DNA of 64,000 nt from Bacteroidia bacterium (GTDB lineage Bacteria > Bacteroidota > Bacteroidia > UKL13-3). The stretch lies in assembly GCA_044351265.1 (NCBI GenBank), contig JBILGC010000005.1:8162-72161 (forward strand), given 5' to 3'. The first letter of the stretch is position 1, and every line of letters starts with the position of its first letter. Position numbers and translations under genes: made by a program. Below, in pieces: positions 865 through 11,981 of the stretch. Under the pieces are notes generated by a model, which ran no database searches, was not told the origin of the DNA, and saw only the letters and a program-made list of their open reading frames with translations.

Positions 865-910
865 GAAAGTTACAAGGTTAGAAAGTTACAGGGTTAGTCA
901 GAAGGTTGGG
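865..910. repeat. Tandem 16-bp repeat (GAAAGTTACARGGTTA x2 plus a degenerate third copy)
   Basis: Seen in sequence: GAAAGTTACAAGGTTA, then GAAAGTTACAGGGTTA, then GTCAGAAGGTTGGG. Confidence 0.5.
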
Positions 911-1034
911 CAGATTAATATTTTCAGTAACTCAAAATTGATCTTCGCTCGACTCTCTTCACGTTTCTATATTTCTTATTAAATGCAATTCAATAGGCAG
1001 GAATCACTAAATACCAAAAAATAAGTCTTAAGTA

Positions 1035-2198
1035 TTAGTCTTCCTGATACGCTTCTTCTGCAAAAACGGGTGCGTTGTATTGTTCTAATGCTGTGTTTTT
1101 ATTTTCTTCAAGATTCACTGCATATCTGAGTCCGGCACCTTTACCAATAACCTTCACCAAATTTTGGTCAACAAGGGCGGTAAAATCTCTTTGTATGGTT
1201 TTTCTGTTGCAATCAAACTCACTCACCAAATCTTTTGTAGAAATAAAGCCTTTATGCTGTATAATATACATGATGAGTTTTTGGCGCTTGTTTAAAATGC
1301 TTTCATCTATTTCCCTTAACCTGTAACCACGCTCAAAAACATAGTTCATAATATTTTTTTGACGCGCATTTAATTGTTCAAAATCTATTTGCTTTCTGAA
1401 ATAGGAGCGAAGCAATAATTTAAGACGGTTTAGTTGTGCTGCATACAAATCAGTGCCAAAGTCAAGTTCAGCCTGCATACTGTTTACATTTTCCTGCGGA
1501 GCATCTATGCGGTTTTCAATAAAGTAGTTTTGGTAATCATTCTTATTCAGATATAACTCATGCTCAATGCTAATCAATCCCAGCAAATCCATTCCTTTTT
1601 TTCTAAGCCAAAAGTTCTGAAGCAGTGATGCTATTTTGCTTTTTGCCTCAGAGAAAATACGAGTATTGAGTAATTTAAAATGTAAAATCCATGATTGAAT
1701 AATGGGGTGTTGCTCTTCATCCTGATTCAGATATTCAAATAGGCTCTCCAGTTCAAGCTCAGCTGTTGGACTTAGCTTTTCCGGACTGCGCAGGCTATTT
1801 ACGGAGAATAGGTTTACATCTTCACGGTTATTATATAAATCAAGTATTAGCAGTTTTTGAAGCTGATAAAGCATAGATACATGTAAAGGCTGGTCTAATT
1901 GCGAATCAAGCCAAGCCTCCGCTTTCATATATTGTTCCACTCCTCTTTCTGCTAAACCTTTCGGCCTCATTTTACCCTGAACGATATATTTTACTGTTTT
2001 GATATCAATGATGTTGTGATCAAGTGCATTGGCGTAATAGGTGCGAAGGATACGAGAGTTTTGCTGCTCTATCTGCCTGATATGATCAGGCAAATCAATG
2101 AAGTCATGTATTTTGATGAGCTCTTCATGCTGATGAAAACAATCATAGTGTTTTGCATCAATAGCTATGGCCGGCTCAAACTTATTGATTAATATCAC
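1035..2198 (-). CDS. Fic/Doc-like protein with degenerate active-site motif and C-terminal winged-HTH (DeoR-like)
   Basis: Region HPIIQSWILHFKLLNTRIFSEAKSKIASLL aligns to the Fic core (HPFxDGNGRxxR) but lacks the His and the GNGR. The C-terminus (..ISTKDLVSEFDCNRKTIQRDFTALVDQNLVKVIGKGAGLRY) looks like a wHTH. Confidence 0.5.
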   Translation of the reverse strand: MILINKFEPAIAIDAKHYDCFHQHEELIKIHDFIDLPDHIRQIEQQNSRILRTYYANALDHNIIDIKTVKYIVQGKMRPKGLAERGVEQYMKAEAWLDSQLDQPLHVSMLYQLQKLLILDLYNNREDVNLFSVNSLRSPEKLSPTAELELESLFEYLNQDEEQHPIIQSWILHFKLLNTRIFSEAKSKIASLLQNFWLRKKGMDLLGLISIEHELYLNKNDYQNYFIENRIDAPQENVNSMQAELDFGTDLYAAQLNRLKLLLRSYFRKQIDFEQLNARQKNIMNYVFERGYRLREIDESILNKRQKLIMYIIQHKGFISTKDLVSEFDCNRKTIQRDFTALVDQNLVKVIGKGAGLRYAVNLEENKNTALEQYNAPVFAEEAYQED

Positions 2199-2378
2199 TC
2201 ATCCAAAAGTACACGCATTATGCATGTTGTGCAGACTAAGTACCTCTCAAACAGTTGTGGATATTGGCATTTTAAAGATAGGTAAGGTTTAACAACTTCT
2301 TAAGATGCCCGAAAACATTAAGAAAAACGCGATTCAAAAAAATAGACAGGCCTCTAAAATAGCTGTGAATAATTGCTG

Positions 2379-3914
2379 TTATAAGGTTTCTAGCGTTTGC
2401 AGATAATGCTCTGCTTGCTTAAAGATCTCCTGCCTTTCTGCACTGGCCATTTTATTCAAGACCTGATACATCATAGAAATACGTTGATTGTTGCTTAACA
2501 GGTTTCTGTTGCGCTCATAAAAATGCCAGTATAAACTGTTAAACGGACAGGCTTTATCGCCATATTTTTTCTTCTTGTCATAATAGCAACTCTTGCAGTA
2601 ATCGCCCATCTTATCAATGTAGTTGGCAGAGGAAATATAGGGCTTACTACCTACTATTCCCCCATCGGCAAACTGACTCATGCCTCGTGTATTGGTTATT
2701 TCAACCCATTGCAGCGCGTCTATATAAATACCCAAATACCATTGGTCTACCTCATCCGGATGTATACCGGCAAGCAGAGCAAAATTACCTGTTACCATCA
2801 ATCGTTGTATATGATGTGCGTACGCGTTTTGCAAACTATTATTTACCGCCTGCTTCACACAGTTCATATTGGTTTCTCCGGTCCAGAAATAGGCAGGTAG
2901 TCGGGTTGAATGATTGAAGAAGTTAAGTGTTTCATAAGCCGGCATTTTCCACCAATAAATTCCCCTCATGTATTCGCGCCATCCGATGATTTGCCTCACA
3001 AATCCTTCTATCTGTGGTAGGCTAATGTGTTCCGTATTTTTTCTCCAAGCTTCAACTGCTGCATGAACAACTTCTGCAGGAGAGATCATTTTTGTATTAA
3101 GTGCAAACGATAAGCGTGAATGAAATAGAAAAGGTTCCTGAACAGACATGGCATCCTGATAAGTGCCAAAGTAGGGCAAAATGTGCTTAACAAAATAGTC
3201 AAGCAAGGCTAGAGACTGTTGTCGCGAAACCGGCCAAAGAAATGCTTGAGGTTGAATATCGCCTAGATACTTTGCGCCACATTTTTTTATTTCCTCTATT
3301 ATCTGAGAAACATCATTTTTTACCAAATTATAAGCAGGTGCAGTGGGTTGGCCAGACCATTTTTTTCGGTTTTCAGCATCATAGTTCCATTTACCGCCAA
3401 TGGGCTCTGTGCCATCCATCAGTATACCATATTGTTTTCTGATTTGCCTGTAAAATGTTTCCATTAGAATTTGCTTCTTGCCTTCAAACAATTCTTTTAC
3501 CTGCATGCGGGTACTCATAAAATGTTCGGTATCAAAAGAGCTGTAAGGGATGGTAAGGCTTTCGCAAATTAGCCGAAGTTGTTCATCAACACGCCATTCA
3601 TCAGGCAGCTGATATTGAAATTCCTGTACACGATATTGCTTAATTAGCTGAGATAAATTTTCCGATAGTATATGTTTATTGGAAGGATCATTGATGGTAT
3701 AATAAATTACCTGATGACCTGCTTGTTCAAGATTTTGGGCAAAGTTGCGCATGGCCGCAAAAAATCCTGTAAGCTTTTGTATGTGATGCGTTACATAATC
3801 TGTTTCCTGCCGCATCTCAAACAGGCAGTAAATATGTTCATCGTTTACTTCACCAAACCAACTGTGGTTTTGATTTAACTGGTCTCCCAGCAACAATCTG
3901 AGCTTTTTTGCCAT
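2379..3914 (-). CDS. FeS-BCP family cryptochrome/(6-4) photolyase-like protein (COG3046, PhrB/CryB-like)
   Basis: N-terminal MAKKLRLLLGDQLN..HSWF is typical of COG3046. The C-terminal Cys triad C-x2-C-x12-C (CKSCYYDKKKKYGDKAC) matches the [4Fe-4S] ligand spacing of PhrB, and an upstream Cys is also present. Confidence 0.8.
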   Translation of the reverse strand: MAKKLRLLLGDQLNQNHSWFGEVNDEHIYCLFEMRQETDYVTHHIQKLTGFFAAMRNFAQNLEQAGHQVIYYTINDPSNKHILSENLSQLIKQYRVQEFQYQLPDEWRVDEQLRLICESLTIPYSSFDTEHFMSTRMQVKELFEGKKQILMETFYRQIRKQYGILMDGTEPIGGKWNYDAENRKKWSGQPTAPAYNLVKNDVSQIIEEIKKCGAKYLGDIQPQAFLWPVSRQQSLALLDYFVKHILPYFGTYQDAMSVQEPFLFHSRLSFALNTKMISPAEVVHAAVEAWRKNTEHISLPQIEGFVRQIIGWREYMRGIYWWKMPAYETLNFFNHSTRLPAYFWTGETNMNCVKQAVNNSLQNAYAHHIQRLMVTGNFALLAGIHPDEVDQWYLGIYIDALQWVEITNTRGMSQFADGGIVGSKPYISSANYIDKMGDYCKSCYYDKKKKYGDKACPFNSLYWHFYERNRNLLSNNQRISMMYQVLNKMASAERQEIFKQAEHYLQTLETL

Positions 3915-3932
3915 TTGCTCTCTCTTTATTGT

Positions 3933-4544
3933 TTAGGGCTTGGCATAAGGCAGTTCTGCAATTTTAGATAGGCGGTAATATGTTTCCAATCCGCCTGCTC
4001 CAATGCTGCCGCTATTTTCCAGTTGCAAAATATTGGATTCGTTTACAACAGCATGCTCCAGTATAATTTCTTGCACTTTACCTATAATCAGAATGGTTCC
4101 GTTTGATTTAACAGGAATTTCTTCTTCAAATGTTAGCCCTATTTTTACAACAGATTCTTTTACATAAGGAGCTTTTATGGCTGATGTAAATTCCGGTGTG
4201 AGCCCTGTTGCTTCAAACTCACTGATGGCATAACGAGCAGAAGTTTGATGAGCCTGTCTGTAAATTCCTTCATGCACATGATTAATGGTGAAGCAACCTG
4301 TTTGTTTGAGGTATTCGTAGGTATGTCGTTCAACACTAACCGGACGCATAATAAATCCCATAAGCGGAGGATTGGCACCGATATGCACGACAGAATTGAA
4401 AATAGCCAGATTGGTAATGCCGTCCTTATTGATGGTACCTATAAGATTGGCTGCGCGGATTCCGGGCAATGAATTAATTAAATTGGTTCTGGGTTGTTTA
4501 TCCATTCCCAATACATCTGATAAGGTAAGTATGGTTCTGCTCAT
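3933..4544 (-). CDS. Flavin reductase-like FMN-binding domain protein
   Basis: Flavin_Reduct-like sequence (SRTILTLSDVLGMDKQPRTNLINSLPG..GANPPLMGFIMRPVSVERHTYEYLKQTGCFTINHV). Start moved to internal Met (MSRTIL) so it does not overlap the upstream SDR stop. Confidence 0.7.
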   Translation of the reverse strand: MSRTILTLSDVLGMDKQPRTNLINSLPGIRAANLIGTINKDGITNLAIFNSVVHIGANPPLMGFIMRPVSVERHTYEYLKQTGCFTINHVHEGIYRQAHQTSARYAISEFEATGLTPEFTSAIKAPYVKESVVKIGLTFEEEIPVKSNGTILIIGKVQEIILEHAVVNESNILQLENSGSIGAGGLETYYRLSKIAELPYAKP

Positions 4545-4551
4545 GAATATT

Positions 4552-5238
4552 TTATCTAATGGCCTGCATGCCACCATCAACTGAAATAATTTGACCTGTA
4601 ATCCAATTGGCATTTATGAGAAACAAGGCTGCATCTGCTATATCATCAGGGCTGCCAATCTTTTTCAGCGGATGTCTTTCTTCTGCAGCTTTAATTTTTG
4701 CTTCGGCATTTAAGAGTTTTTCTGCCAGAGGTGTTTGTGTAAGCGATGGGGCAATAGCATTCACCCTTATTTTAGGTGCGAACTCGGCAGCAAGGCTTCT
4801 GGTTAGGCCTTCAATGGCGCCTTTTGCTGCACTGATGCTTGCATGAAATGGCATACCTGTTTGCACGGCAACCGTACTAAACAAAGTAATGCTTGGTGAT
4901 TCTGCCTGTTGCAACAGCGATAAATAATGGCGCATAGTTTTAATGGCTCCCAGCAAATTGATATTCCAATCGTTTAAAAAATCCTCATTTTTTAATGAGC
5001 GAAATGGTTTGAGTGAAATGGTGCCGGGACAGTAAATCATGGCATCAATGGGTTTATCTATTGAAGGAAAATCCGGATTGTCTTGTGCTATATCAACTTT
5101 AAAGTGATTTATACTGCTTCCTGTGTTTAGGTTTCCGGTGTTTCTGGAAAGTGCTGAAATTTCATGTGTTATGCTCAGCTTTTGGGCAAGTGCACCACCA
5201 ATGCCACTGCTTGCTCCTACAATTAATGCATGTTTCAT
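4552..5238 (-). CDS. Short-chain dehydrogenase/reductase (SDR) family oxidoreductase
   Basis: TGxxxGxG-type NAD(P) motif ALIVGASSGIGGALAQKL and the LTRSLAAE signature. The usual YxxxK appears as ISAAK, so the catalytic Tyr may be substituted. Start taken at MKHALIV. Confidence 0.75.
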   Translation of the reverse strand: MKHALIVGASSGIGGALAQKLSITHEISALSRNTGNLNTGSSINHFKVDIAQDNPDFPSIDKPIDAMIYCPGTISLKPFRSLKNEDFLNDWNINLLGAIKTMRHYLSLLQQAESPSITLFSTVAVQTGMPFHASISAAKGAIEGLTRSLAAEFAPKIRVNAIAPSLTQTPLAEKLLNAEAKIKAAEERHPLKKIGSPDDIADAALFLINANWITGQIISVDGGMQAIR

Positions 5239-5258
5239 GTGTAAGTAACATCCTTTAT

Positions 5259-6398
5259 TTAAAAAGGTTTGCCATGTGTTTTGCCGATGAGCCACTGCGT
5301 TACGAAGGGCATAGGCTTAAGCGCTGAAATGGTTAGGTTGGTTAGCAGAGGGTTACCAAATAATCCTTGAATAAAACGACCTGCTTTAAGCCTACCAGCA
5401 AATTCTCTGTTCCATGCTTCATGGTATGCTGCTGTCAGTTCTTTTTTATTGCCATTGGGTTGTTTGTATTGTTTTACTAAGTCGGCAAGTATATGGGAAG
5501 CATGCATGGCCATGCTCATGCCGTTTCCGCATAAGGGAGTAATTAGCCCGGCTGAATCGCCTGCAAACAAAAGATTACCTGCATGGCTGCTTTTCTTTTC
5601 AAAGCTAATCTGTGAAATAACCAGTGGCTTATCATATAAAAAGCGTGCACGCTTAAAAATCAATTTCAAAAAAGGATTTTTGTATAGTACCTCTTCTTCC
5701 ATTTGATGAATATCTCCATTTCTATTTTTAAGTTGGGTTGCAGTGGTGAGGTAACACAAGCAAAACTGATTATTTTCTATTTTTGAAATACCGCAATAGC
5801 CATTTTGGAAATTATGCAATGAAATGCGGAATTCCGGCTCATCTATTTCAATATGATATTTTACGCCAATAAAGTCATTTAGCTTGCGCTGGGTAGGATG
5901 TATAAAGGAGCGATTTAGTTTTACATCCAAATTGGCGCGTTTACCCCAGGAGCCAAAAACAAGTTTTGCATCGTAAACTTCTTGTGTGGTTCTCAACTCA
6001 TGTATATGTTCTTTTTCACACACATCTGTTACCCTTGTATTGCATTTAACACTCACCCCGATTGAGAGTGCTTTTTTATATAACAGATTATCTAAAGTAA
6101 ATCTGCTGATGCCAAAACCGCCCTGATAAAGCGGCTGTGTTAAATAATTGCCTGATGGTGCCGATACCAGTAATTCATTTATGCGCGGAAGTTGCATTGC
6201 TTGAAGCGGAATGCCAAGGCGCTCTAAAAATGGCCAGCTTTCCATGCTGATGTACTCACCGCAAACTTTATGAAACGGATAGTTTTCTTTTTCAAACAAT
6301 ATGGTTTGTAGTCCTTGATGCTGCAGTTGCATGGCAAGCGTTAAACCGGCAAGTCCTCCGCCAATAATGGCAGCATCATATGTTATATGCGCACTCAT
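5259..6398 (-). CDS. FAD-dependent oxidoreductase (geranylgeranyl-reductase/FixC-like flavoprotein; possible hydroxylase)
   Basis: Dinucleotide fold YDAAIIGGGLAGLTLAMQL and a FHKVCGEYIS motif typical of the COG0644 family. The start at MSAHITY overlaps the upstream stop as ATGA. Confidence 0.75.
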   Translation of the reverse strand: MSAHITYDAAIIGGGLAGLTLAMQLQHQGLQTILFEKENYPFHKVCGEYISMESWPFLERLGIPLQAMQLPRINELLVSAPSGNYLTQPLYQGGFGISRFTLDNLLYKKALSIGVSVKCNTRVTDVCEKEHIHELRTTQEVYDAKLVFGSWGKRANLDVKLNRSFIHPTQRKLNDFIGVKYHIEIDEPEFRISLHNFQNGYCGISKIENNQFCLCYLTTATQLKNRNGDIHQMEEEVLYKNPFLKLIFKRARFLYDKPLVISQISFEKKSSHAGNLLFAGDSAGLITPLCGNGMSMAMHASHILADLVKQYKQPNGNKKELTAAYHEAWNREFAGRLKAGRFIQGLFGNPLLTNLTISALKPMPFVTQWLIGKTHGKPF

Positions 6399-7108
6399 TG
6401 ATTTGCACCTGGAATTAGCACAATCCATCTAAAAGCCCATTTCCATTTAAGAGTATAGTGAGGGATGTGAGTTGCTTTAAGAATATATTGCCAATCCTGC
6501 TTTTTAAAACCACGCAGTACCGATAATGGCGCATCGTTTTTAACAAGGTATGAATGTGAGAATAGGCGTGTGAGCCAAGCAATGCTAAAGTAAGCAAGTG
6601 GGTGGCGGTGCAGATCATTAATGATAACGGCCTGCTTTGCCATTTTAACAGACCAACTGATTAGCGCTGAGGTTTCCTCATTAGATAAGTGATGACAAAA
6701 CAATGCATTCACCACAATATCAACTTCCATGTTTTCACTTAGTAGATTTTTATAATCTTCCCTAATAAAGCTTATTTCCGGGTATCCGGTACAGGCTTGT
6801 TTTGCATAGGCAATACAATCTTGTTTTAGATCAACACCTGTTAGTTTCACATTTAGATTTTTTCTGCGTGCCCAGCTTGCAATGGCCTTTAAGGTGTCGC
6901 CACCTCCGCATCCAATATCTAGGATATGAATGGTTTTATTGGTCGGTAGAGACAATTCATTAAGTGCAGCAATGGTAGCAGCATGGCCACCCAAACGGGT
7001 GTTGATGATGTCCAGTTCAAGCAAATTTCTGTGCAGCGCATCTACCGGGATATCGAAAGCATCTAGCAATTCTTTTTGTTTGGAGCGGCTATTAAACATG
7101 TTTTTCAA
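6395..7108 (-). CDS. Class I SAM-dependent methyltransferase
   Basis: Motif I ILDIGCGGGDTL and an acidic post-I residue region. The start overlaps the PKS stop by 17 nt. Confidence 0.8.
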   Translation of the reverse strand: MKNMFNSRSKQKELLDAFDIPVDALHRNLLELDIINTRLGGHAATIAALNELSLPTNKTIHILDIGCGGGDTLKAIASWARRKNLNVKLTGVDLKQDCIAYAKQACTGYPEISFIREDYKNLLSENMEVDIVVNALFCHHLSNEETSALISWSVKMAKQAVIINDLHRHPLAYFSIAWLTRLFSHSYLVKNDAPLSVLRGFKKQDWQYILKATHIPHYTLKWKWAFRWIVLIPGANQ

Positions 7109-8180
7109 ATAAAAAACTTTCCATGGTTAAACCGGGACCGAAGGCTACGCCAAAGGCTTTTCCTGATTGATTGGATTGAAGCAATTTTTTGAGCACAAAT
7201 AAAATGGTAGCACTGCTCATATTGCCATAATTGCGCAATACTTCATAAGAGGCTTGTAACGCTTGCTTAGGCAAGTTTAGTTGTGATTGAATGACATCTA
7301 GGATTTTTCTTCCACCCGGATGTATTGCCCACAAGGTGATATCTGACAAAGATAAGCTGCCCTTAAGGCAATGATTAAATAGCGTTTCAATATGCTGCTC
7401 AATTAATGAAGGTATATATGCACTGAGCGTCATTAAAAATCCTTCTGATGAAATGTGCCAGGCCATATCTTTTTCTCCATTTGTAATGAGCTCACTGTAA
7501 AAGTCATTCAATCCAAAATATGGTGTGTTGCATGCATTCAGGTATGCATCTCCGGCAATTATGCAAGCTGCTGCACCATCAGCAAATATGGCATTGGCTG
7601 TTAGATTATCTGCTGTGGGTTGCTTTTGGAAATGTAAGGTGCACAACTCAACAGATACTATGAGAACCAGCGCATCTTTACTGGCAGTGCAAATAGCATG
7701 AGCCTGCTTAAAGGCGTGTATCATGGCATAGCACCCCATAAAGTTTACAGATGTGCGGTTAATGGTAGTAGGTAGTTTCAGTTTTTTTACCAATTCAATG
7801 TCTAAACCCGGTGCCGACATACCTGTGCATGAAACGGTAATGAGATGGGTAAATCTTTTGCTGGTATCATCAGGTAAATCATGCAAACAGTTATGAACTG
7901 CTTGCTCTGCCAATGATACCGCATTGCTTTGATAGCAAGCTAAACGGGTATCTATATCTGGTTGAAGATTGCATTTAAATAATATTTTAGACTCATAATC
8001 ACTATTAAAGTCGGGCAATACGCTATAGCGATATTCAATTCCGCTTCGCTGATACATGAGATTTAAACGCTGTAAATCTGTTTCCTCGGGGGTGTACTGC
8101 GCCTGCATAAAGGATAGTATATCAGCCTGACTATGCTTATAGGGTGGCAATGCTGTATCTATTGACCAAATGAAACTCAT
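7092..8180 (-). CDS. Type III polyketide synthase (chalcone/stilbene synthase superfamily; alkylresorcinol/alkylpyrone synthase-like)
   Basis: Catalytic triad contexts are visible: Cys in FMGCYAMIHAF, His in WAIHPGGRKILD, Asn in NYGNMSSATILFVL. C-terminal GPGLTMESFLFE. Start set at MSFIWSID, overlapping the UbiA stop. Confidence 0.85.
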   Translation of the reverse strand: MSFIWSIDTALPPYKHSQADILSFMQAQYTPEETDLQRLNLMYQRSGIEYRYSVLPDFNSDYESKILFKCNLQPDIDTRLACYQSNAVSLAEQAVHNCLHDLPDDTSKRFTHLITVSCTGMSAPGLDIELVKKLKLPTTINRTSVNFMGCYAMIHAFKQAHAICTASKDALVLIVSVELCTLHFQKQPTADNLTANAIFADGAAACIIAGDAYLNACNTPYFGLNDFYSELITNGEKDMAWHISSEGFLMTLSAYIPSLIEQHIETLFNHCLKGSLSLSDITLWAIHPGGRKILDVIQSQLNLPKQALQASYEVLRNYGNMSSATILFVLKKLLQSNQSGKAFGVAFGPGLTMESFLFEKHV

Positions 8181-9073
8181 AGAATAATATTTGATATGAT
8201 GAGAGAAAGGAAATATAAATTTAATAAACTTGACGCAAGTACATTCATTCGCATAGTATGGGTAAAATCTGCATACTTTGTTTCTTTCCACACCTTGCTA
8301 AGCCAGTAAAAAAAATATATCAGCACAGGAGCAAGCACAAACTGAAGCAGCCAGAATTTCCATAAATTGTCCTGAAACCTAGTAAAGAACATAAGCATAG
8401 CAAGCACAAAGCAAATAGCAGTGAGTAAAAAAGTGCCGCGGTAGCCAAGCAGCATGCTTATGGTATTCACCCCATCTTTCCTGTCAGCCTCATGCTGATA
8501 GATTTGTGTAAGCGGATAAACACCGGCAATAAGCAGGGAGGAAATGCAACATCCGCTTAAATCAGGTTGCATGCCACCAACAGCGTAAAAAGTTAACATA
8601 TAAATCCATGCGCCCTGAAAAACCACTACCGTTAAAAACCCGGGAATTGCATATTGTTTGAGCCTGATTCCTCTGTAACTATAAGTACGTGAAGCAAGGA
8701 TATATATTGAAACGTAAAGTGCTGCTTTTAAATCAATCAGCAAGCTCATTAAAATAGCCATTGTATCCATGAGTGCAGTGAGATGAAAAACTTTTTTATC
8801 TGCTTTAGGTGGCTTTTTTAAGCCACCAATGGGTCCTTCATCTTGATCCATATAACTGTTGTAAGCATTGCTTGCTGGATAAATAAGCAGGTGAAGAATA
8901 AAAAACAGTAGTAGTGCACGATGTAATGAAATATGTTGGATACTGCTTAATGCAAATAAGAATACGGGCAGCAAAAAAAATGAAAAAGGCAAACGAAGCA
9001 GTTGTAAATTCTTGGCTGATATCATAAAGGGGAAAATACGATTTATTCTTAATGTTTGCTTAATAAATAACAT
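8177..9073 (-). CDS. UbiA-family aromatic prenyltransferase (integral membrane)
   Basis: Polytopic hydrophobic protein. First Asp-rich motif NAYNSYMDQDEG and second motif YQHEADRKDG are present. The true start may be the internal MISAKNLQLLRLP near 9025. Confidence 0.75.
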   Translation of the reverse strand: MLFIKQTLRINRIFPFMISAKNLQLLRLPFSFFLLPVFLFALSSIQHISLHRALLLFFILHLLIYPASNAYNSYMDQDEGPIGGLKKPPKADKKVFHLTALMDTMAILMSLLIDLKAALYVSIYILASRTYSYRGIRLKQYAIPGFLTVVVFQGAWIYMLTFYAVGGMQPDLSGCCISSLLIAGVYPLTQIYQHEADRKDGVNTISMLLGYRGTFLLTAICFVLAMLMFFTRFQDNLWKFWLLQFVLAPVLIYFFYWLSKVWKETKYADFTHTMRMNVLASSLLNLYFLSLIISNIIL

Positions 9074-9088
9074 TAAGAAAAAATTAAA
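9055..9088. promoter_or_regulatory. Perfect 11-bp inverted repeat TTCTTAATGTT-N12-AACATTAAGAA in the divergent intergenic leader (candidate operator)
   Basis: Seen in sequence. Lies between the UbiA-PKS operon start and the divergent response-regulator gene. Confidence 0.4.
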
Positions 9089-9186
9089 GAAGTCTGTTTA
9101 CATTGATTATAAAGGCTTTTAGGGCATTTTGTTTGCTGTTCATTCATAATAGGTGTGCTCTTACGAATAAAGCAAATAGGATTTTA

Positions 9187-9194
9187 TAACTTTG
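9187..9194 (+). promoter_or_regulatory. Candidate Bacteroidota -7 promoter element (TAACTTTG, TAnnTTTG-type) for the response regulator gene
   Basis: Fits the TAnnTTTG consensus 22 nt upstream of the ATG. No clean -33 TTTG was seen. Confidence 0.3.
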
Positions 9195-9216
9195 AATTGA
9201 TTAATAACACGCAACT

Positions 9217-9927
9217 ATGCAAAAGGAACAACAGCCACATATACTTTTAGTTGAAGATGAATCTACATTAGGATATTTTTTAAAGGAGCATCTTAAATTG
9301 GGAGGGTTCAAAGCCAATCTTTGTGTTGATGGTGAGGAAGGTTGGGAGACTTTTAAAACCGAGAAATTTGATTTATGTATTCTAGATGTAAACATGCCCA
9401 AGAAAAACGGTTATGAGCTTGCAAAAGATATACGAAGCATTAATCCTTATGTGCCTATTGTTTTTTTAACTGCCAATTCTGCGGAAGGAGATCGCATCAA
9501 AGGGTTTGAAATTGGAGCAGATGAGTATATAGTTAAGCCTTTTAGTCCGGAAGAGCTGTTGGCCCGTATTAGAGCTATTCTCAGGCGCACGCGATTTGCT
9601 CCGCCTGTTATTAATCCAAAGGAGGAAATTAGAAAAGTAGGAAGCCTCGAGGTTGATTTTATTAATCATACCATTACCATTAAAGGAAATCAAAAACGAA
9701 TGAGCACAACAGAAGCAGATTTGTTTAAACTTTTTATTGATAATAAAAATAATTTGCTCACCCGTAACTCTATACTTATCAATATTTGGGGGCGAGATGA
9801 CTATTATACGGCACGTAATCTGGATGTATATATTAATAAACTCAGAAAAATATTAAAGGAAGATCCTTTATTGGAAATTGTGAATATTCACGGTGCAGGC
9901 TTTAAACTTGTAGAAAATACTGCTTAG
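9217..9927 (+). CDS. OmpR/PhoB-type two-component response regulator (REC + winged-helix)
   Basis: REC features ILLVEDE..DLCILDVNMPKKNGYEL..K. C-terminal trans_reg_C-like ..YINKLRKIL... Confidence 0.85.
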   Translation: MQKEQQPHILLVEDESTLGYFLKEHLKLGGFKANLCVDGEEGWETFKTEKFDLCILDVNMPKKNGYELAKDIRSINPYVPIVFLTANSAEGDRIKGFEIGADEYIVKPFSPEELLARIRAILRRTRFAPPVINPKEEIRKVGSLEVDFINHTITIKGNQKRMSTTEADLFKLFIDNKNNLLTRNSILINIWGRDDYYTARNLDVYINKLRKILKEDPLLEIVNIHGAGFKLVENTA

Positions 9928-9932
9928 TAACT

Positions 9933-11981
9933 GTGAAACGCATTCTGCTTATATTTACCCTTATTGTATTTTGTTTCCGCCTGGGAATTACCCAGGGAAT
10001 TAATACCGATAGTTTAATTCAAATCACTCAGCAGGCCCCCGATAGGCAGAAGCAGCAGGCATTACAGGTACTTGTGCAATTTTATAAGAACAATGATCCC
10101 CAAACCGCTTTGCAGTATATAATGAAACTGGTGGAGCTAAATGAACGCTTGAATGATGATATTGCATTGGCAAAGGCTTACCAAAATGCAGGAATACTCA
10201 ACTTCAGGCTTGGTAATTTTGCACGGGCAAAGGAGTTTTATCTGTTAGCCCTCGATAAGTTTGTACAACAGAAAAATACAGATGCACAAAATGAAATCAA
10301 TGGTTATCTGGCTGCCGTTTATTATGCAACTGGGAATTTACCTCTTGCTGCTGATACGTATTTAAAAGTATTGCGCTATTACGAAGAAAAGAATGATAAA
10401 GCAGCACTACTCAATATTTTAACTTCTCTAGGAAGTATTTACTCCCGACTGAACAACTTCTCAAAAGCATTGGAATACAACTTACGTGCCTTGCGTATTT
10501 ATGAGGAATCATCTGACAAATTCAGAACACTCGTAGGATACGACAATATTGGCAATATTTATTTAAGGCAAGGAAACCTGCAAAAAGCGGGTGAGTTTTT
10601 TAACAAATCGCTTTTGGTATACAGAGAGCTGAATAATAAGGCAGGTGAAGCATCTACTTTATTTCAGCTTGGAAATATAGCCGATAAACAAAACGATGTG
10701 GAGGAAGCAATTGTATACTACCAAAAAGCAATTGATGTTGCAAAGGCTATTAAATCTCAGCCTATGCAAACCACCGCAGAACTTGCACTAGCCAATAATT
10801 TATTTAAAATAAAGCTTTACCAGCAGGCCATTACCTCATATCAAAATGTAATACGTTTGGCTAAACAACTTGAAATGAAAATTGAGTTGGAGGAGGCTTA
10901 TAGAGGAATTTCATTGGCCTATGCAGCGATTAAGCAGCAACAAAAGGCAACAACATTTGGTGAATTGAGCAGGGAGTTAAAGGATTCTTTATACAACGAC
11001 AGCAATATTAAAAAGCTTGCCGATTTACAGCTGGTGTATGAAACGGAAAAAAAACAACAGCAAATAGAATTGCTTTCAAAAGAGCAGCAACTGCAGGAGC
11101 TTGAATTAAAGCGTGAGCGAGAGTCGAAGAATTTCTGGGCTTATGCTTCAGTTGTGCTTGCCATTGTTTTTATGGTACTCATTTATTTCTCTATTCAAAA
11201 TAAACGTATTGCCAATAACCTTCGTAGGCAAAAGGAAGTACTTGAGCAGAAGAATAGAGAGGTGCTGGCGCAAAAAGAACAGCTCAATCAGTTAAATAAT
11301 GTTAAGGATCGTTTCTTTTCTATTATCTCACATGATTTAAGAAATAACCTTGCCACCATGAAGTTGTATTTTGATTTAATCAGCCATCCCAATTATAAGC
11401 CTACTGATCATTCAGAAGCAACCAAGCAAATATCAGCTTCAGTTGAAAACACCATCGATTTGCTGGAGAACTTGCTTGTATGGGCTTCTGCGCAAATAAA
11501 GGGAGTGCCTATTCATATACAGAAGCTACATTTACACTCACTTATACAGGGAAATATCAATTTACTTCAAGGTAATGCCCACCAGAAAAAAATCAGTATA
11601 CAAAACAATGCAGATGAGCAGGCCAGCGCAATGGGTGATATGGATATGATTCATTTGGTTTTACGTAATTTAATTTCCAACGCAATTAAGTTTACAAACG
11701 ATGGTGGCACAATTCAAATTAGCAGTGAAGAAAGAAATGGCAAACAAATCATCTGTATTCAAGATAATGGAGTAGGTATAAGCAAAGAAAATTTATCAAA
11801 ACTATTTGATCAGCATTTGCATCCCAGCACCAAAGGAACTGGTAATGAAAAAGGAACCGGATTAGGGCTAATGCTTTGTAAAGATTTTATGATGCGTAAC
11901 CAAGGCTCTATCAGAGTGGAGAGTGAAAAAGGCAAGGGTGCGTCATTTTATATTGAGCTACCTATAGTGGGTAAATTGTAA
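9933..11981 (+). CDS. TPR-repeat sensor histidine kinase
   Basis: N-terminal signal, multiple TPR-like repeats, a single TM (FWAYASVVLAIVFMVLIYFSI), a coiled coil, H-box FSIISHDLRNNL, and an HATPase_c G-box (GTGLGLMLCKDF). Confidence 0.85.
   Translation: MKRILLIFTLIVFCFRLGITQGINTDSLIQITQQAPDRQKQQALQVLVQFYKNNDPQTALQYIMKLVELNERLNDDIALAKAYQNAGILNFRLGNFARAKEFYLLALDKFVQQKNTDAQNEINGYLAAVYYATGNLPLAADTYLKVLRYYEEKNDKAALLNILTSLGSIYSRLNNFSKALEYNLRALRIYEESSDKFRTLVGYDNIGNIYLRQGNLQKAGEFFNKSLLVYRELNNKAGEASTLFQLGNIADKQNDVEEAIVYYQKAIDVAKAIKSQPMQTTAELALANNLFKIKLYQQAITSYQNVIRLAKQLEMKIELEEAYRGISLAYAAIKQQQKATTFGELSRELKDSLYNDSNIKKLADLQLVYETEKKQQQIELLSKEQQLQELELKRERESKNFWAYASVVLAIVFMVLIYFSIQNKRIANNLRRQKEVLEQKNREVLAQKEQLNQLNNVKDRFFSIISHDLRNNLATMKLYFDLISHPNYKPTDHSEATKQISASVENTIDLLENLLVWASAQIKGVPIHIQKLHLHSLIQGNINLLQGNAHQKKISIQNNADEQASAMGDMDMIHLVLRNLISNAIKFTNDGGTIQISSEERNGKQIICIQDNGVGISKENLSKLFDQHLHPSTKGTGNEKGTGLGLMLCKDFMMRNQGSIRVESEKGKGASFYIELPIVGKL

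Follow-up and report, generated by a model that had tools for sequence, protein, structure and literature searches.

A seven-gene run in an uncultured Bacteroidia clade probably combines a conserved type III polyketide synthase core with separable flavin reductase and photolyase blocks

Organization of the locus

We analysed a window of 64,000 nucleotides from an uncultured Bacteroidia bacterium (contig JBILGC010000005.1). Seven genes lie back to back on the minus strand between positions 9073 and 2379, as seen both by reading the minus strand directly and in the list of open reading frames, and the domain assignments that an initial sequence-only reading had made for all seven were confirmed by Pfam scores above the curated cut-offs. 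The run starts with a UbiA-family membrane prenyltransferase (8177..9073), followed by a type III polyketide synthase (PKS; 7092..8180) with Chal_sti_synt_N and Chal_sti_synt_C domains, a class I SAM-dependent methyltransferase (6395..7099) and an FAD-dependent oxidoreductase (5259..6398) of the geranylgeranyl reductase (GGR), halogenase and group-A monooxygenase fold. These are followed by an atypical short-chain dehydrogenase/reductase (SDR; 4552..5238; Pfam adh_short_C2 and adh_short), a split-barrel flavin reductase (3933..4544; PF01613) and a (6-4) photolyase of the Fe-S bacterial cryptochrome/photolyase family (2379..3914; Pfam DPRP). A gene for a 387-aa protein with a C-terminal DeoR-type HTH (1035..2198, minus strand; Pfam HTH_DeoR and a weak Fic match) comes next. 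On the plus strand, upstream of the UbiA gene, the open reading frame list and the Pfam domains of homologues identify an OmpR-type response regulator (9217-9927) and a TPR histidine kinase (9933-11981).

The junctions are as tight as had been described. Stop and start overlap as ATGA between the UbiA and PKS genes (8180-8177), the methyltransferase and FAD enzyme have a common ATGA (6398-6395), and the gaps of 20 nt (FAD enzyme to SDR), 7 nt (SDR to flavin reductase) and 18 nt (flavin reductase to photolyase) are exact. The 17-nt overlap given for the PKS and methyltransferase genes holds if the methyltransferase starts at the alternative TTG at 7108, and shrinks to 8 nt with the ATG at 7099, which gene callers pick in the 96% and 80% identical relatives (234 aa). 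The UbiA start more likely lies at a second ATG at 9025 than at 9073, because conservation of the family begins around residue 17-24; the resulting protein is 282 aa long, and gene callers use this start in close relatives. Promoter and terminator scans of the array were at chance level, and the term operon is therefore based on spacing only.

A conserved four-gene core

Homology searches placed the ketosynthase-like gene with the type III PKSs and not with FabH. Its best PDB matches are type III PKSs (E 1e-43 to 1e-32). FabH was considered as an identity and rejected, the NCBIfam FabH models matching only at E 2e-11 or weaker. The catalytic triad is intact, with Cys150, His287 and Asn320 invariant in 17 homologues, and we infer that the enzyme is of the alkylresorcinol/alkylpyrone-synthase type. 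The UbiA protein scores 63.4 bits against PF01040 (cut-off 34.2), and its N69/N72/D76/E79 and Y192/D197/G201 motifs are conserved among 77 sequences. The methyltransferase matches Pfam Methyltransf_25, Methyltransf_31 and Methyltransf_11, and no ICMT match was found for it in Pfam.

More than 597 PKS loci were found in total, and neighbours were counted at 80 Bacteroidota genome loci found with the PKS, 67 of which were fully covered. Besides the PKS (80), the conserved families at these loci are UbiA (76), the methyltransferase (73) and the FAD enzyme (68), and the fifth-commonest family occurs at just 21 of the 80. Of the 67 fully covered loci, 59 have all four genes, and the order UbiA, PKS, methyltransferase, FAD enzyme is found in 62 of 65 complete sets. 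These four genes are thus conserved neighbours across Bacteroidota, as had been proposed.

The same comparison does not bear out the proposal that all seven genes form one unit. Downstream of the core, the SDR occurs at only 2 of the 80 loci and the flavin reductase and photolyase at only 1 each, at least 75 of the 80 have neither SDR nor flavin reductase within 10 kb, and the three genes persist as a tight operon in genomes that lack the PKS. Only within the clade to which the window belongs is the core followed by the tail.

Separable blocks downstream of the core

Related loci show where the array comes apart. Its breakpoints are the junctions between FAD enzyme and SDR and between flavin reductase and photolyase, as seen from gene insertions in L103 and L081 and losses in L004. 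At the second junction, L081 has an inserted 145-aa gene and L005 a gap of 320 nt; the photolyase is absent in L004 and L103, and L004 has also lost the flavin reductase. In L087 a dCMP deaminase gene is followed by SDR, flavin reductase, photolyase and DeoR-type genes with gaps of 10-11 nt and no core gene. Three further loci, from sister genomes (L085, L097 and L102), retain the flanks of the window and the tail at 63-72% identity, including the divergent response regulator-histidine kinase pair, and have no PKS, methyltransferase or FAD enzyme. The UbiA homologues left at PKS-less loci are 28-35% identical to core UbiAs, the L102 copy is likewise just 34-35% identical to those of L085, L096 and L097, and the first catalytic motif is lost in L085, L097 and L102. 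Since the leftover UbiA is degenerate where the PKS is missing while the tail is kept, UbiA depends on the core, whereas the tail is independent of it.

The SDR and flavin reductase form a pair that is widespread in its own right. The SDR has Ile135 in place of the catalytic Tyr, and its His132-x6-Lys139 is invariant in seven orthologues. Of 48 metagenome loci that could be evaluated, 22 have it immediately before the flavin reductase, and most of these 22 contain no core gene. The flavin reductase (PDB 3fge, E 1e-55) has 4952 matching proteins at E<=1e-10, with homologues 50-93% identical. Its neighbours at 80 sampled metagenome loci are mostly SDR, photolyase-family or purEK genes, and a core gene is present at only six of the 80.

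The last gene was confirmed to encode an Fe-S (6-4) photolyase, a DNA-repair enzyme. It scores 548 bits against the solved Vibrio (6-4) photolyase 7ykn and 427 bits against PhrB (Agrobacterium) and CryB (Rhodobacter), aligns with all three end to end, and has the same four cluster cysteines (352, 440, 443 and 456); no notable difference from these three proteins was seen. It is an ordinary member of its family, unrelated to lipid synthesis. The DeoR-type gene is a conserved neighbour of the photolyase outside the biosynthetic core: it follows the photolyase in L005, L081, L085, L087, L097 and L102, and directly follows the SDR in L004. The 180-nt gap before it and a TAnnTTTG box at 2211 suggest that it has its own promoter.

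We therefore favour, with a probability of roughly 70%, the reading that several separable blocks happen to sit close together on one strand in this uncultured Bacteroidia clade, making the run a composite. In this reading, UbiA, PKS, methyltransferase and FAD enzyme (9073-5259) are the real biosynthetic unit, the SDR and flavin reductase (5238-3933) a pair conserved on its own, and the third block (3914-2379) an Fe-S (6-4) photolyase for the repair of UV-damaged DNA. The second and third blocks have no need of the first. Their position 20 nt downstream of it in this clade makes co-expression with it probable.

It is also possible, though doubtful, that the array is a light/UV or oxidative-stress transcription unit in which lipid genes were recruited beside a photolyase in this clade, so that co-location would reflect shared regulation and a photoprotective lipid would be made alongside DNA repair. 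The two-component system upstream is conserved (L004, L005, L038, L081, L083, L100 and L103), distant lineages have the flavin reductase beside photolyase-family genes, DUF2805 and MerR/B12-binding regulators, and a methyltransferase-FAD-SDR-flavin reductase run in L145 ends in a methionine sulfoxide reductase gene. However, a Pfam scan covering the window's first 15 kb recognised no light-sensor gene, the photolyase junction varies from one close relative to the next, and the flavin reductase also adjoins plain housekeeping genes (purEK in 14-22 loci, lpxK in L089).

A single six-gene pathway, with SDR and flavin reductase accessory to the phenolic-lipid route, is unlikely. In such a pathway the FAD enzyme would act as the oxygenase component of a two-component system, supplied with reduced flavin by the flavin reductase, and the SDR would serve as the reductase for a keto, quinone or prenyl function. 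Generic flavin reductases are usually enough for two-component enzymes, and only 5 of 36 evaluable loci have the FAD enzyme immediately before the common SDR-flavin reductase pair. Nevertheless, the gap between FAD enzyme and SDR is held at 20-24 nt in the window, L081, L083, L005, L004, L095 and L100, across relatives with PKSs only 53% identical. Methyltransferase, FAD enzyme, SDR and flavin reductase genes also recur with different flanks in L101 and L145 (FAD-SDR gap about 35-45 nt), as do the same genes minus the SDR in L151, all on contigs without PKS or UbiA. This recurrence is more than a one-off juxtaposition and could reflect a functional tie; in view of these three contigs, some accessory role, for instance the supply of reduced flavin, is possible.

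Proposed product and comparison with characterised clusters

The composite reading leaves the chemistry to the four core enzymes. The PKS would extend a fatty-acyl starter with malonyl-CoA and cyclise it to an alkylresorcinol-type phenolic lipid, the FAD enzyme would hydroxylate the ring of this lipid to a hydroquinone, the methyltransferase would methylate it, and the membrane UbiA would attach a prenyl group to the polyketide-derived lipid. The expected outcome is a membrane lipid of the prenylated alkyl-methoxy-hydroquinone or quinone kind. By analogy with characterised systems, the phenolic-lipid or quinone product proposed earlier is a sensible one, and the core probably makes a prenylated phenolic membrane lipid.

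The sequence-only reading knew of no characterised cluster with this membership, and had overlooked agqABCD, which has all four core enzyme classes. The 2011 study by Awakawa and colleagues is said to give AgqB and AgqC the oxygenase and methyltransferase roles. As described in PMC4044012 and PMC7692728, agqABCD of Actinoplanes missouriensis is an operon that encodes a type III PKS together with a flavoprotein oxygenase, a methyltransferase and an O-prenyltransferase resembling UbiA, and its products are alkyl-O-dihydrogeranyl-methoxyhydroquinones (Awakawa et al., 2011, ChemBioChem 12:439, as cited there); according to PMC4044012, O-prenylation of a small polyketide by the UbiA-like membrane enzyme was shown in vitro. 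The likeness to the window core is drawn at the level of enzyme class; agqABCD belongs to Actinomycetota and the window cluster, in which UbiA comes first, to Bacteroidota.

The hierridin cluster hidABC of Cyanobium and a Planctomycetota operon likewise match by class, with PKS, SAM methyltransferase and FAD oxidoreductase, and in their standard form differ from the window core in having no UbiA; a hid-like cluster of Raphidiopsis also has a prenyltransferase, and the order hidC>hidA>hidB, the same as in the window, exists in cyanobacteria (PMC8086630). HidA methylates an alkylresorcinol and HidB is assigned the ring hydroxylation (PMC6836626). The PKSs of such operons in planctomycetes yield C15/C17 alkylresorcinols, and the oxidoreductase there has a putative role (PMC10896814). 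The regiochemistry of the methyltransferase varies even within this group, Hid being an O-methylating and Gimesia a C-methylating system.

The analogy drawn earlier with srsABC, the alkylresorcinol and alkylquinone cluster of Streptomyces griseus, stands for gene order (PKS, methyltransferase, flavoprotein) and enzyme classes and fails for methyltransferase homology. In the srs pathway an alkylresorcinol is methylated and then hydroxylated (PMC6669644, PMC13608877). SrsB is an isoprenylcysteine carboxyl methyltransferase (ICMT)-type enzyme (PMC6669644), whereas its counterpart in the window is of the class I Rossmann type; the window core is therefore not of the srs type, and the srs cluster also lacks UbiA. 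True homologues occur in PKS-methyltransferase-FAD monooxygenase clusters on plasmids of the alpha-proteobacteria Paracoccus liaowanqingii (NZ_CP040763) and Novosphingobium pentaromativorans (pLA3), themselves uncharacterised, with identities of 34-39% (PKS), 32% (methyltransferase) and 24-29% (FAD enzyme). The Paracoccus cluster has the three genes in window order and the Novosphingobium cluster has an additional ACP and ketosynthase.

The choice between ring hydroxylation and prenyl-chain reduction, which had been left open for the FAD enzyme, is a real ambiguity that our analysis resolves in part. Fold comparison did not separate the two activities. The two plasmid clusters and L040 have PKS, methyltransferase and FAD enzyme together without UbiA, an association that links the FAD enzyme with the polyketide and not with the prenyl group, and a ring hydroxylase is its most likely role, the one assigned to its counterparts in srs and hid (PMC6669644, PMC6836626). 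That it is instead a GGR or MenJ-like enzyme saturating the UbiA-added chain, the product then being a methylated alkylresorcinol ether with a reduced prenyl chain and no hydroquinone, is distinctly improbable: among NCBIfam models it matches TIGR02032, the geranylgeranyl reductase family, best (E 8e-27), but at a score of 94.6 against a cut-off of 158.8, an invariant G-Y-C-G-I-S replaces the GGR motif YxWxFP, and three loci have only UbiA and PKS without the FAD enzyme. Several homologues are labelled 'menaquinone-9 beta-reductase' by JGI. Cys46, in H-x-V-C-G-E, is invariant and occupies what we take to be the position of the catalytic Cys in archaeal GGR structures. The agq product, by the title of Awakawa (2011) as cited in PMC7692728, bears a dihydrogeranyl group.

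Organization of the seven-gene array

The minus strand between positions 2150 and 9300 was read directly and its ORFs were listed. All seven genes that the sequence-only reading had joined into one prenylated phenolic-lipid or quinone pathway were found, and the domain assignment of each is backed by a Pfam match above the curated cut-off. The first four genes, referred to here as the core (9073-5259), encode a UbiA protein (9073-8177), a type III PKS (8180-7092), a methyltransferase (7108 to 6395 from a TTG start or 7099 to 6395 from an ATG) and an FAD enzyme (6398-5259). The core is directly followed on the same strand by a tail (5238-2379) which encodes an SDR (5238-4552), a flavin reductase (4544-3933) and a photolyase-related protein (3914-2379). 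The two ATGA overlaps and the gaps of 20, 7 and 18 nt reported for the array proved exact. The 17-nt overlap reported between the PKS and methyltransferase genes is obtained with the TTG start, whereas the ATG favoured by gene callers gives 8 nt. In the UbiA gene an in-frame ATG at 9025 yields a 282-aa form, which is the one chosen by gene callers in close relatives. The G+C content is even across the seven genes (approximately 0.39-0.41). Scans of positions 900-9400 gave chance-level numbers of sigma-70 promoters (26 sites, 29.0 expected) and intrinsic terminators (6 sites, 7.1 expected), and the Bacteroidetes -7 box (TAnnTTTG) had a single plausible match, which lies ahead of the DeoR-like gene downstream of the photolyase gene; none of these searches marks out transcripts. 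No RNA family was detected in an Rfam scan of the whole 64-kb window at gathering thresholds.

A four-gene core is conserved in Bacteroidota

Relatives of the PKS were scanned in one genome per species, yielding more than 597 loci. The best 80 were kept, all of which are from Bacteroidota, mostly Chitinophagaceae, with further members in Runella, Emticicia, Lacihabitans and Mucilaginibacter. Neighbouring genes were scored by tblastn with the window proteins and by all-against-all clustering of ORFs, with the same outcome. Only four families are conserved among these best 80 PKS loci: the PKS (80), UbiA (76), the methyltransferase (73) and the FAD enzyme (68). The next commonest neighbour family occurs at 21 of the 80 loci. 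All four core genes are present at 59 of the 67 fully covered PKS loci, and they follow the order UbiA-PKS-methyltransferase-FAD enzyme in 62 of 65 complete sets; in the other three (two Runella and a Runella-like MAG) the UbiA gene has been relocated behind the FAD enzyme gene. Three loci (L038, L011 and L073) carry UbiA and the PKS only, with neither a methyltransferase nor an FAD enzyme gene nearby, and this pair could represent a minimal version with an unmodified prenylated phenolic lipid as product. One locus (L040) has the PKS, methyltransferase and FAD enzyme genes and lacks UbiA.

The genes of the tail rarely follow the core, with the SDR found at two, the flavin reductase at one and the photolyase at one of the best 80 PKS loci. 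The two loci with tail genes behind the core (L004 and L005) share flanking genes with the window and on this basis belong to its clade. Conservation as neighbours across relatives therefore holds for the four core genes and does not extend to the SDR, flavin reductase and photolyase genes.

The tail occurs without the core

Homologues of the flavin reductase number in the thousands, and many are 57-73% identical. At one locus (L087) a dCMP deaminase gene is followed by the SDR, flavin reductase, photolyase and DeoR-like genes, which are 10-11 nt apart; core genes are absent there. At another (L085) the window's response regulator and kinase genes and a weak UbiA homologue precede the SDR-flavin reductase-photolyase-DeoR-like series, and the PKS, methyltransferase and FAD enzyme genes are all absent. 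A third (L089) has a lone flavin reductase gene adjoining lpxK. Scanning metagenomes with an alignment of flavin reductases provided 80 further loci; the SDR gene lies directly upstream of the flavin reductase gene at 22 of 48 evaluable metagenome loci, and the FAD enzyme gene lies directly upstream of the SDR-flavin reductase pair at only 5 of 36 evaluable loci. In more distant lineages purE-purK are frequent neighbours of the flavin reductase gene. Other genes that recur beside it encode photolyase-family proteins devoid of the Fe-S cysteines, DUF2805, an SRPBCC protein and MerR/B12-binding regulators, and this second set of neighbours looks like a light-response neighbourhood. Such recurring neighbours were seen at L108, L125, L127, L135, L138, L146, L147, L155 and L162, for example a photolyase-related protein without the four Fe-S cysteines (L146:9381-10931) and a MerR/B12-binding regulator (L127:9643-10623).

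Relatives of the window also differ at two junctions within the array. Between the FAD enzyme and SDR genes, L103 carries an inserted gene for a predicted secreted protein of 242 aa (6499-7227). Between the flavin reductase and photolyase genes, the 96%-identical locus L081 has a 145-aa ORF without Pfam match (7889-8326) and long gaps, and L005 has a gap of 320 nt; L004 lacks both genes.

The four-gene core is thus conserved and the tail is independent of it. Since the tail is conserved independently of the core and its last gene encodes a DNA-repair enzyme, the proposed seven-enzyme pathway is not upheld; what remains is a widespread core of the same kind as known clusters. The array also serves as a warning that tight spacing does not equal pathway membership, as three of its seven genes live independently and one repairs DNA.

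UbiA drifts where the other core genes are gone

The UbiA protein scores 63.4 bits against PF01040 (cut-off 34.2) and is a multi-pass membrane protein, and by sequence it is a divergent member of the UbiA superfamily, for which the nearest solved structure is the distant DGGGP synthase (E 0.0025). Its first motif is a variant, N72-x3-D76-x2-E79, which is conserved in 77 sequences and does not keep the canonical NDxxDxxxD spacing, and its second motif, Y192-x4-D197-x3-G201, is likewise conserved and does not keep the canonical DxxxD spacing.

Four relatives (L085, L096, L097 and L102) have flanks and a tail 63-72% identical to those of the window and have lost the PKS, methyltransferase and FAD enzyme genes. 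In the UbiA position they carry intact ORFs of 270-304 aa (L085:6396-7256, L097:6395-7252, L096:2-916 and L102:1565-2374) which are only 28-35% identical to the core UbiAs, and the copy of L102 is only 34-35% identical to those of the other three. Motif 1 is missing from these proteins (YPASNAYNSYMDQDE in the window versus QPSIQMQIAYANMQL), which are either relics or proteins with a new role. After loss of the other three core genes, UbiA thus drifts while the tail stays constrained, which ties UbiA to the core and leaves the tail free of it.

Predicted functions of the encoded enzymes

The PKS scores 85.6 and 92.5 bits against Chal_sti_synt_N and Chal_sti_synt_C, respectively (cut-off 27), and its catalytic triad (Cys150, His287 and Asn320) is invariant in 17 aligned homologues. 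Its top PDB matches are an algal PKS III, Mycobacterium PKS18 and Dictyostelium Steely1 (E 2e-43 to 7e-41), and the NCBIfam FabH models reach E 2e-11 or weaker, far under their cut-offs. These matches rule out a FabH identity. The assignment as a type III PKS with an intact triad therefore stands on agreeing PDB, Pfam and triad evidence, and a placement with FabH, which the sequence-only reading had named as one outcome that would refute its pathway, was checked and not found, the protein being closer to type III PKSs. Homologues approximately 54% identical carry the automatic label 'alkylresorcinol/alkylpyrone synthase'. From these labels and by analogy to the hid and planctomycete enzymes (PMC10896814), the PKS would form alkylresorcinols by closing the ring of a long-chain tetraketide in an aldol (C2-C7) reaction.

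The best NCBIfam match of the FAD enzyme is the geranylgeranyl reductase (GGR) family TIGR02032, and a profile of 31 homologues placed FADH2-dependent phenolic/pyrrole halogenases first (E 4e-18), ahead of GGR (7e-11) and FixC (4e-9). As all three groups match, the fold leaves the reaction undecided. The halogenase WxWxIP and GGR YxWxFP motifs both align to an invariant G-Y-C-G-I-S. Membership of the GGR family fails on this replacement and on a TIGR02032 score of 94.6 bits, under the cut-off of 158.8; the sole retained element of the GGR motifs is the invariant Cys of H-x-V-C-G-E. A flavin-dependent halogenase, the best fold and profile match, is ruled out by the replaced motif and by the position after the invariant Pro71, where the halogenase catalytic Lys was sought and the family consensus is variable. 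Homologues of the FAD enzyme accompany prenyltransferase-less type III PKSs in Paracoccus, Novosphingobium and L040, and the enzyme is missing from the loci with UbiA and PKS only. Its counterparts in Srs (PMC6669644) and Hid (PMC6836626) are assigned hydroxylation. These PKS contexts and counterparts favour an FAD enzyme that would act on the ring. A plasmid search with the FAD enzyme returned alpha-proteobacterial clusters and homologues in unrelated contexts. In Hymenobacter sp. DG01 (L091; plasmid NZ_CP040937, 161799-162983) a 43%-identical homologue is preceded by isonitrile synthase and TauD-family dioxygenase genes; the family of the FAD enzyme therefore also serves other aromatic secondary metabolism.

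The methyltransferase is a class I Rossmann enzyme, as among Pfam families it matches class I families only (Methyltransf_25/31/11/12/23) and has no ICMT match. It is 32% identical to its counterparts in the alpha-proteobacterial clusters. The SDR retains Ser121 and Lys139 and has Ile135 at the position of the catalytic Tyr (YxxxK) in seven of seven orthologues, so that it fails as a classical SDR; its His132-x6-Lys139 spacing, invariant in the seven orthologues, recalls enoyl-reductase-type SDRs. The last gene encodes an ordinary Fe-S bacterial cryptochrome/photolyase-family (6-4) photolyase, with 257 bits to Pfam DPRP, 548 bits to 7ykn, 427 bits to PhrB and CryB, and the [4Fe-4S] cysteines present (Cys352, Cys440, Cys443 and Cys456).

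Comparison with known systems and a possible product

The likeness to srsABC drawn by the sequence-only reading holds for the PKS-methyltransferase-flavoprotein order on one strand and breaks down at the methyltransferase, which is of class I, whereas SrsB has been classed with the isoprenylcysteine carboxyl methyltransferases (PMC6669644). Closest by enzyme class is agqABCD of Actinoplanes (Awakawa 2011), which, as cited in PMC4044012 and PMC7692728, shares all four classes with the core, namely a type III PKS, a flavoprotein, a methyltransferase and a UbiA-like prenyltransferase. The hid and planctomycete operons share three classes (PMC6836626, PMC8086630, PMC10896814), and a hid-like cluster carrying a prenyltransferase has been noted in a cyanobacterium (PMC8086630). 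Of the biosynthetic clusters predicted in Bacteroidetes, those with a type III PKS rank in the four commonest types, and most of them lack a known product (PMC9100364). Our literature search turned up no description of the Bacteroidota cluster or of what it makes.

Four chemical steps can be proposed from the characterised analogues. The PKS would convert a fatty-acyl starter and malonyl-CoA into an alkylresorcinol, the FAD enzyme would hydroxylate the ring, the class I methyltransferase would methylate it and UbiA would prenylate it at the membrane, giving a prenylated alkyl-methoxy-hydroquinone or quinone. Hundreds of species carry this particular four-gene version, and the core offers a clear minimal set for expression. 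If its product is a prenylated alkyl-hydroquinone, this would be a widespread and overlooked membrane lipid of a major environmental phylum.

The link between core and tail and the flanking regulators

The link of the core to the SDR-flavin reductase pair goes beyond a single accident. The FAD enzyme-SDR spacing of 20-24 nt is retained in the window, L081, L083, L005, L004, L095 and L100. On two contigs without PKS or UbiA, methyltransferase and FAD enzyme genes of ortholog-level identity (48-58%) join the pair at a spacing of about 35-45 nt: in L101 (5074-9781) methyltransferase, FAD enzyme, SDR, flavin reductase and photolyase genes lie between E2 acyltransferase and aldehyde dehydrogenase genes, and in L145 (5427-9276) a DNA polymerase I gene is followed by methyltransferase, FAD enzyme, SDR, flavin reductase and MsrA (methionine sulfoxide reductase) genes. 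L151 has the methyltransferase, FAD enzyme and flavin reductase genes with the SDR absent. These arrangements, and a fold of the FAD enzyme that resembles halogenases, leave some room for a flavin reductase that would serve the FAD enzyme, an idea that we consider unlikely. In a broader reading, to which we give a probability of roughly 0.2, the lipid genes of the window's clade would have become part of a unit for photo-oxidative stress. Its FAD enzyme would be a hydroxylase of the two-component type, supplied by the flavin reductase encoded next to it, and a light- or UV-induced, tocopherol- or quinone-like membrane lipid would be made together with the (6-4) photolyase. The core, which several hundred Bacteroidota species carry, would specify prenylated polyketide (hydro)quinones of a class not described so far, acting as membrane protectants or electron carriers.

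Divergently from UbiA, on the plus strand, genes for an OmpR-type response regulator and a TPR-rich histidine kinase (9217-11981) are conserved throughout the clade; they are kept in PKS-less relatives and are therefore not dedicated to the PKS genes. On the other side, the minus-strand DeoR-like gene (1035-2198) encodes a protein of 387 aa that carries a DeoR-type HTH at its C-terminus and matches Fic weakly. It closes the array downstream in every examined tail-bearing relative, after the photolyase gene where present and straight after the SDR gene in L004. Its GTG is preceded at a distance of 13 nt by the putative Bacteroidetes-type -7 box at 2211 (TACTTTTG).
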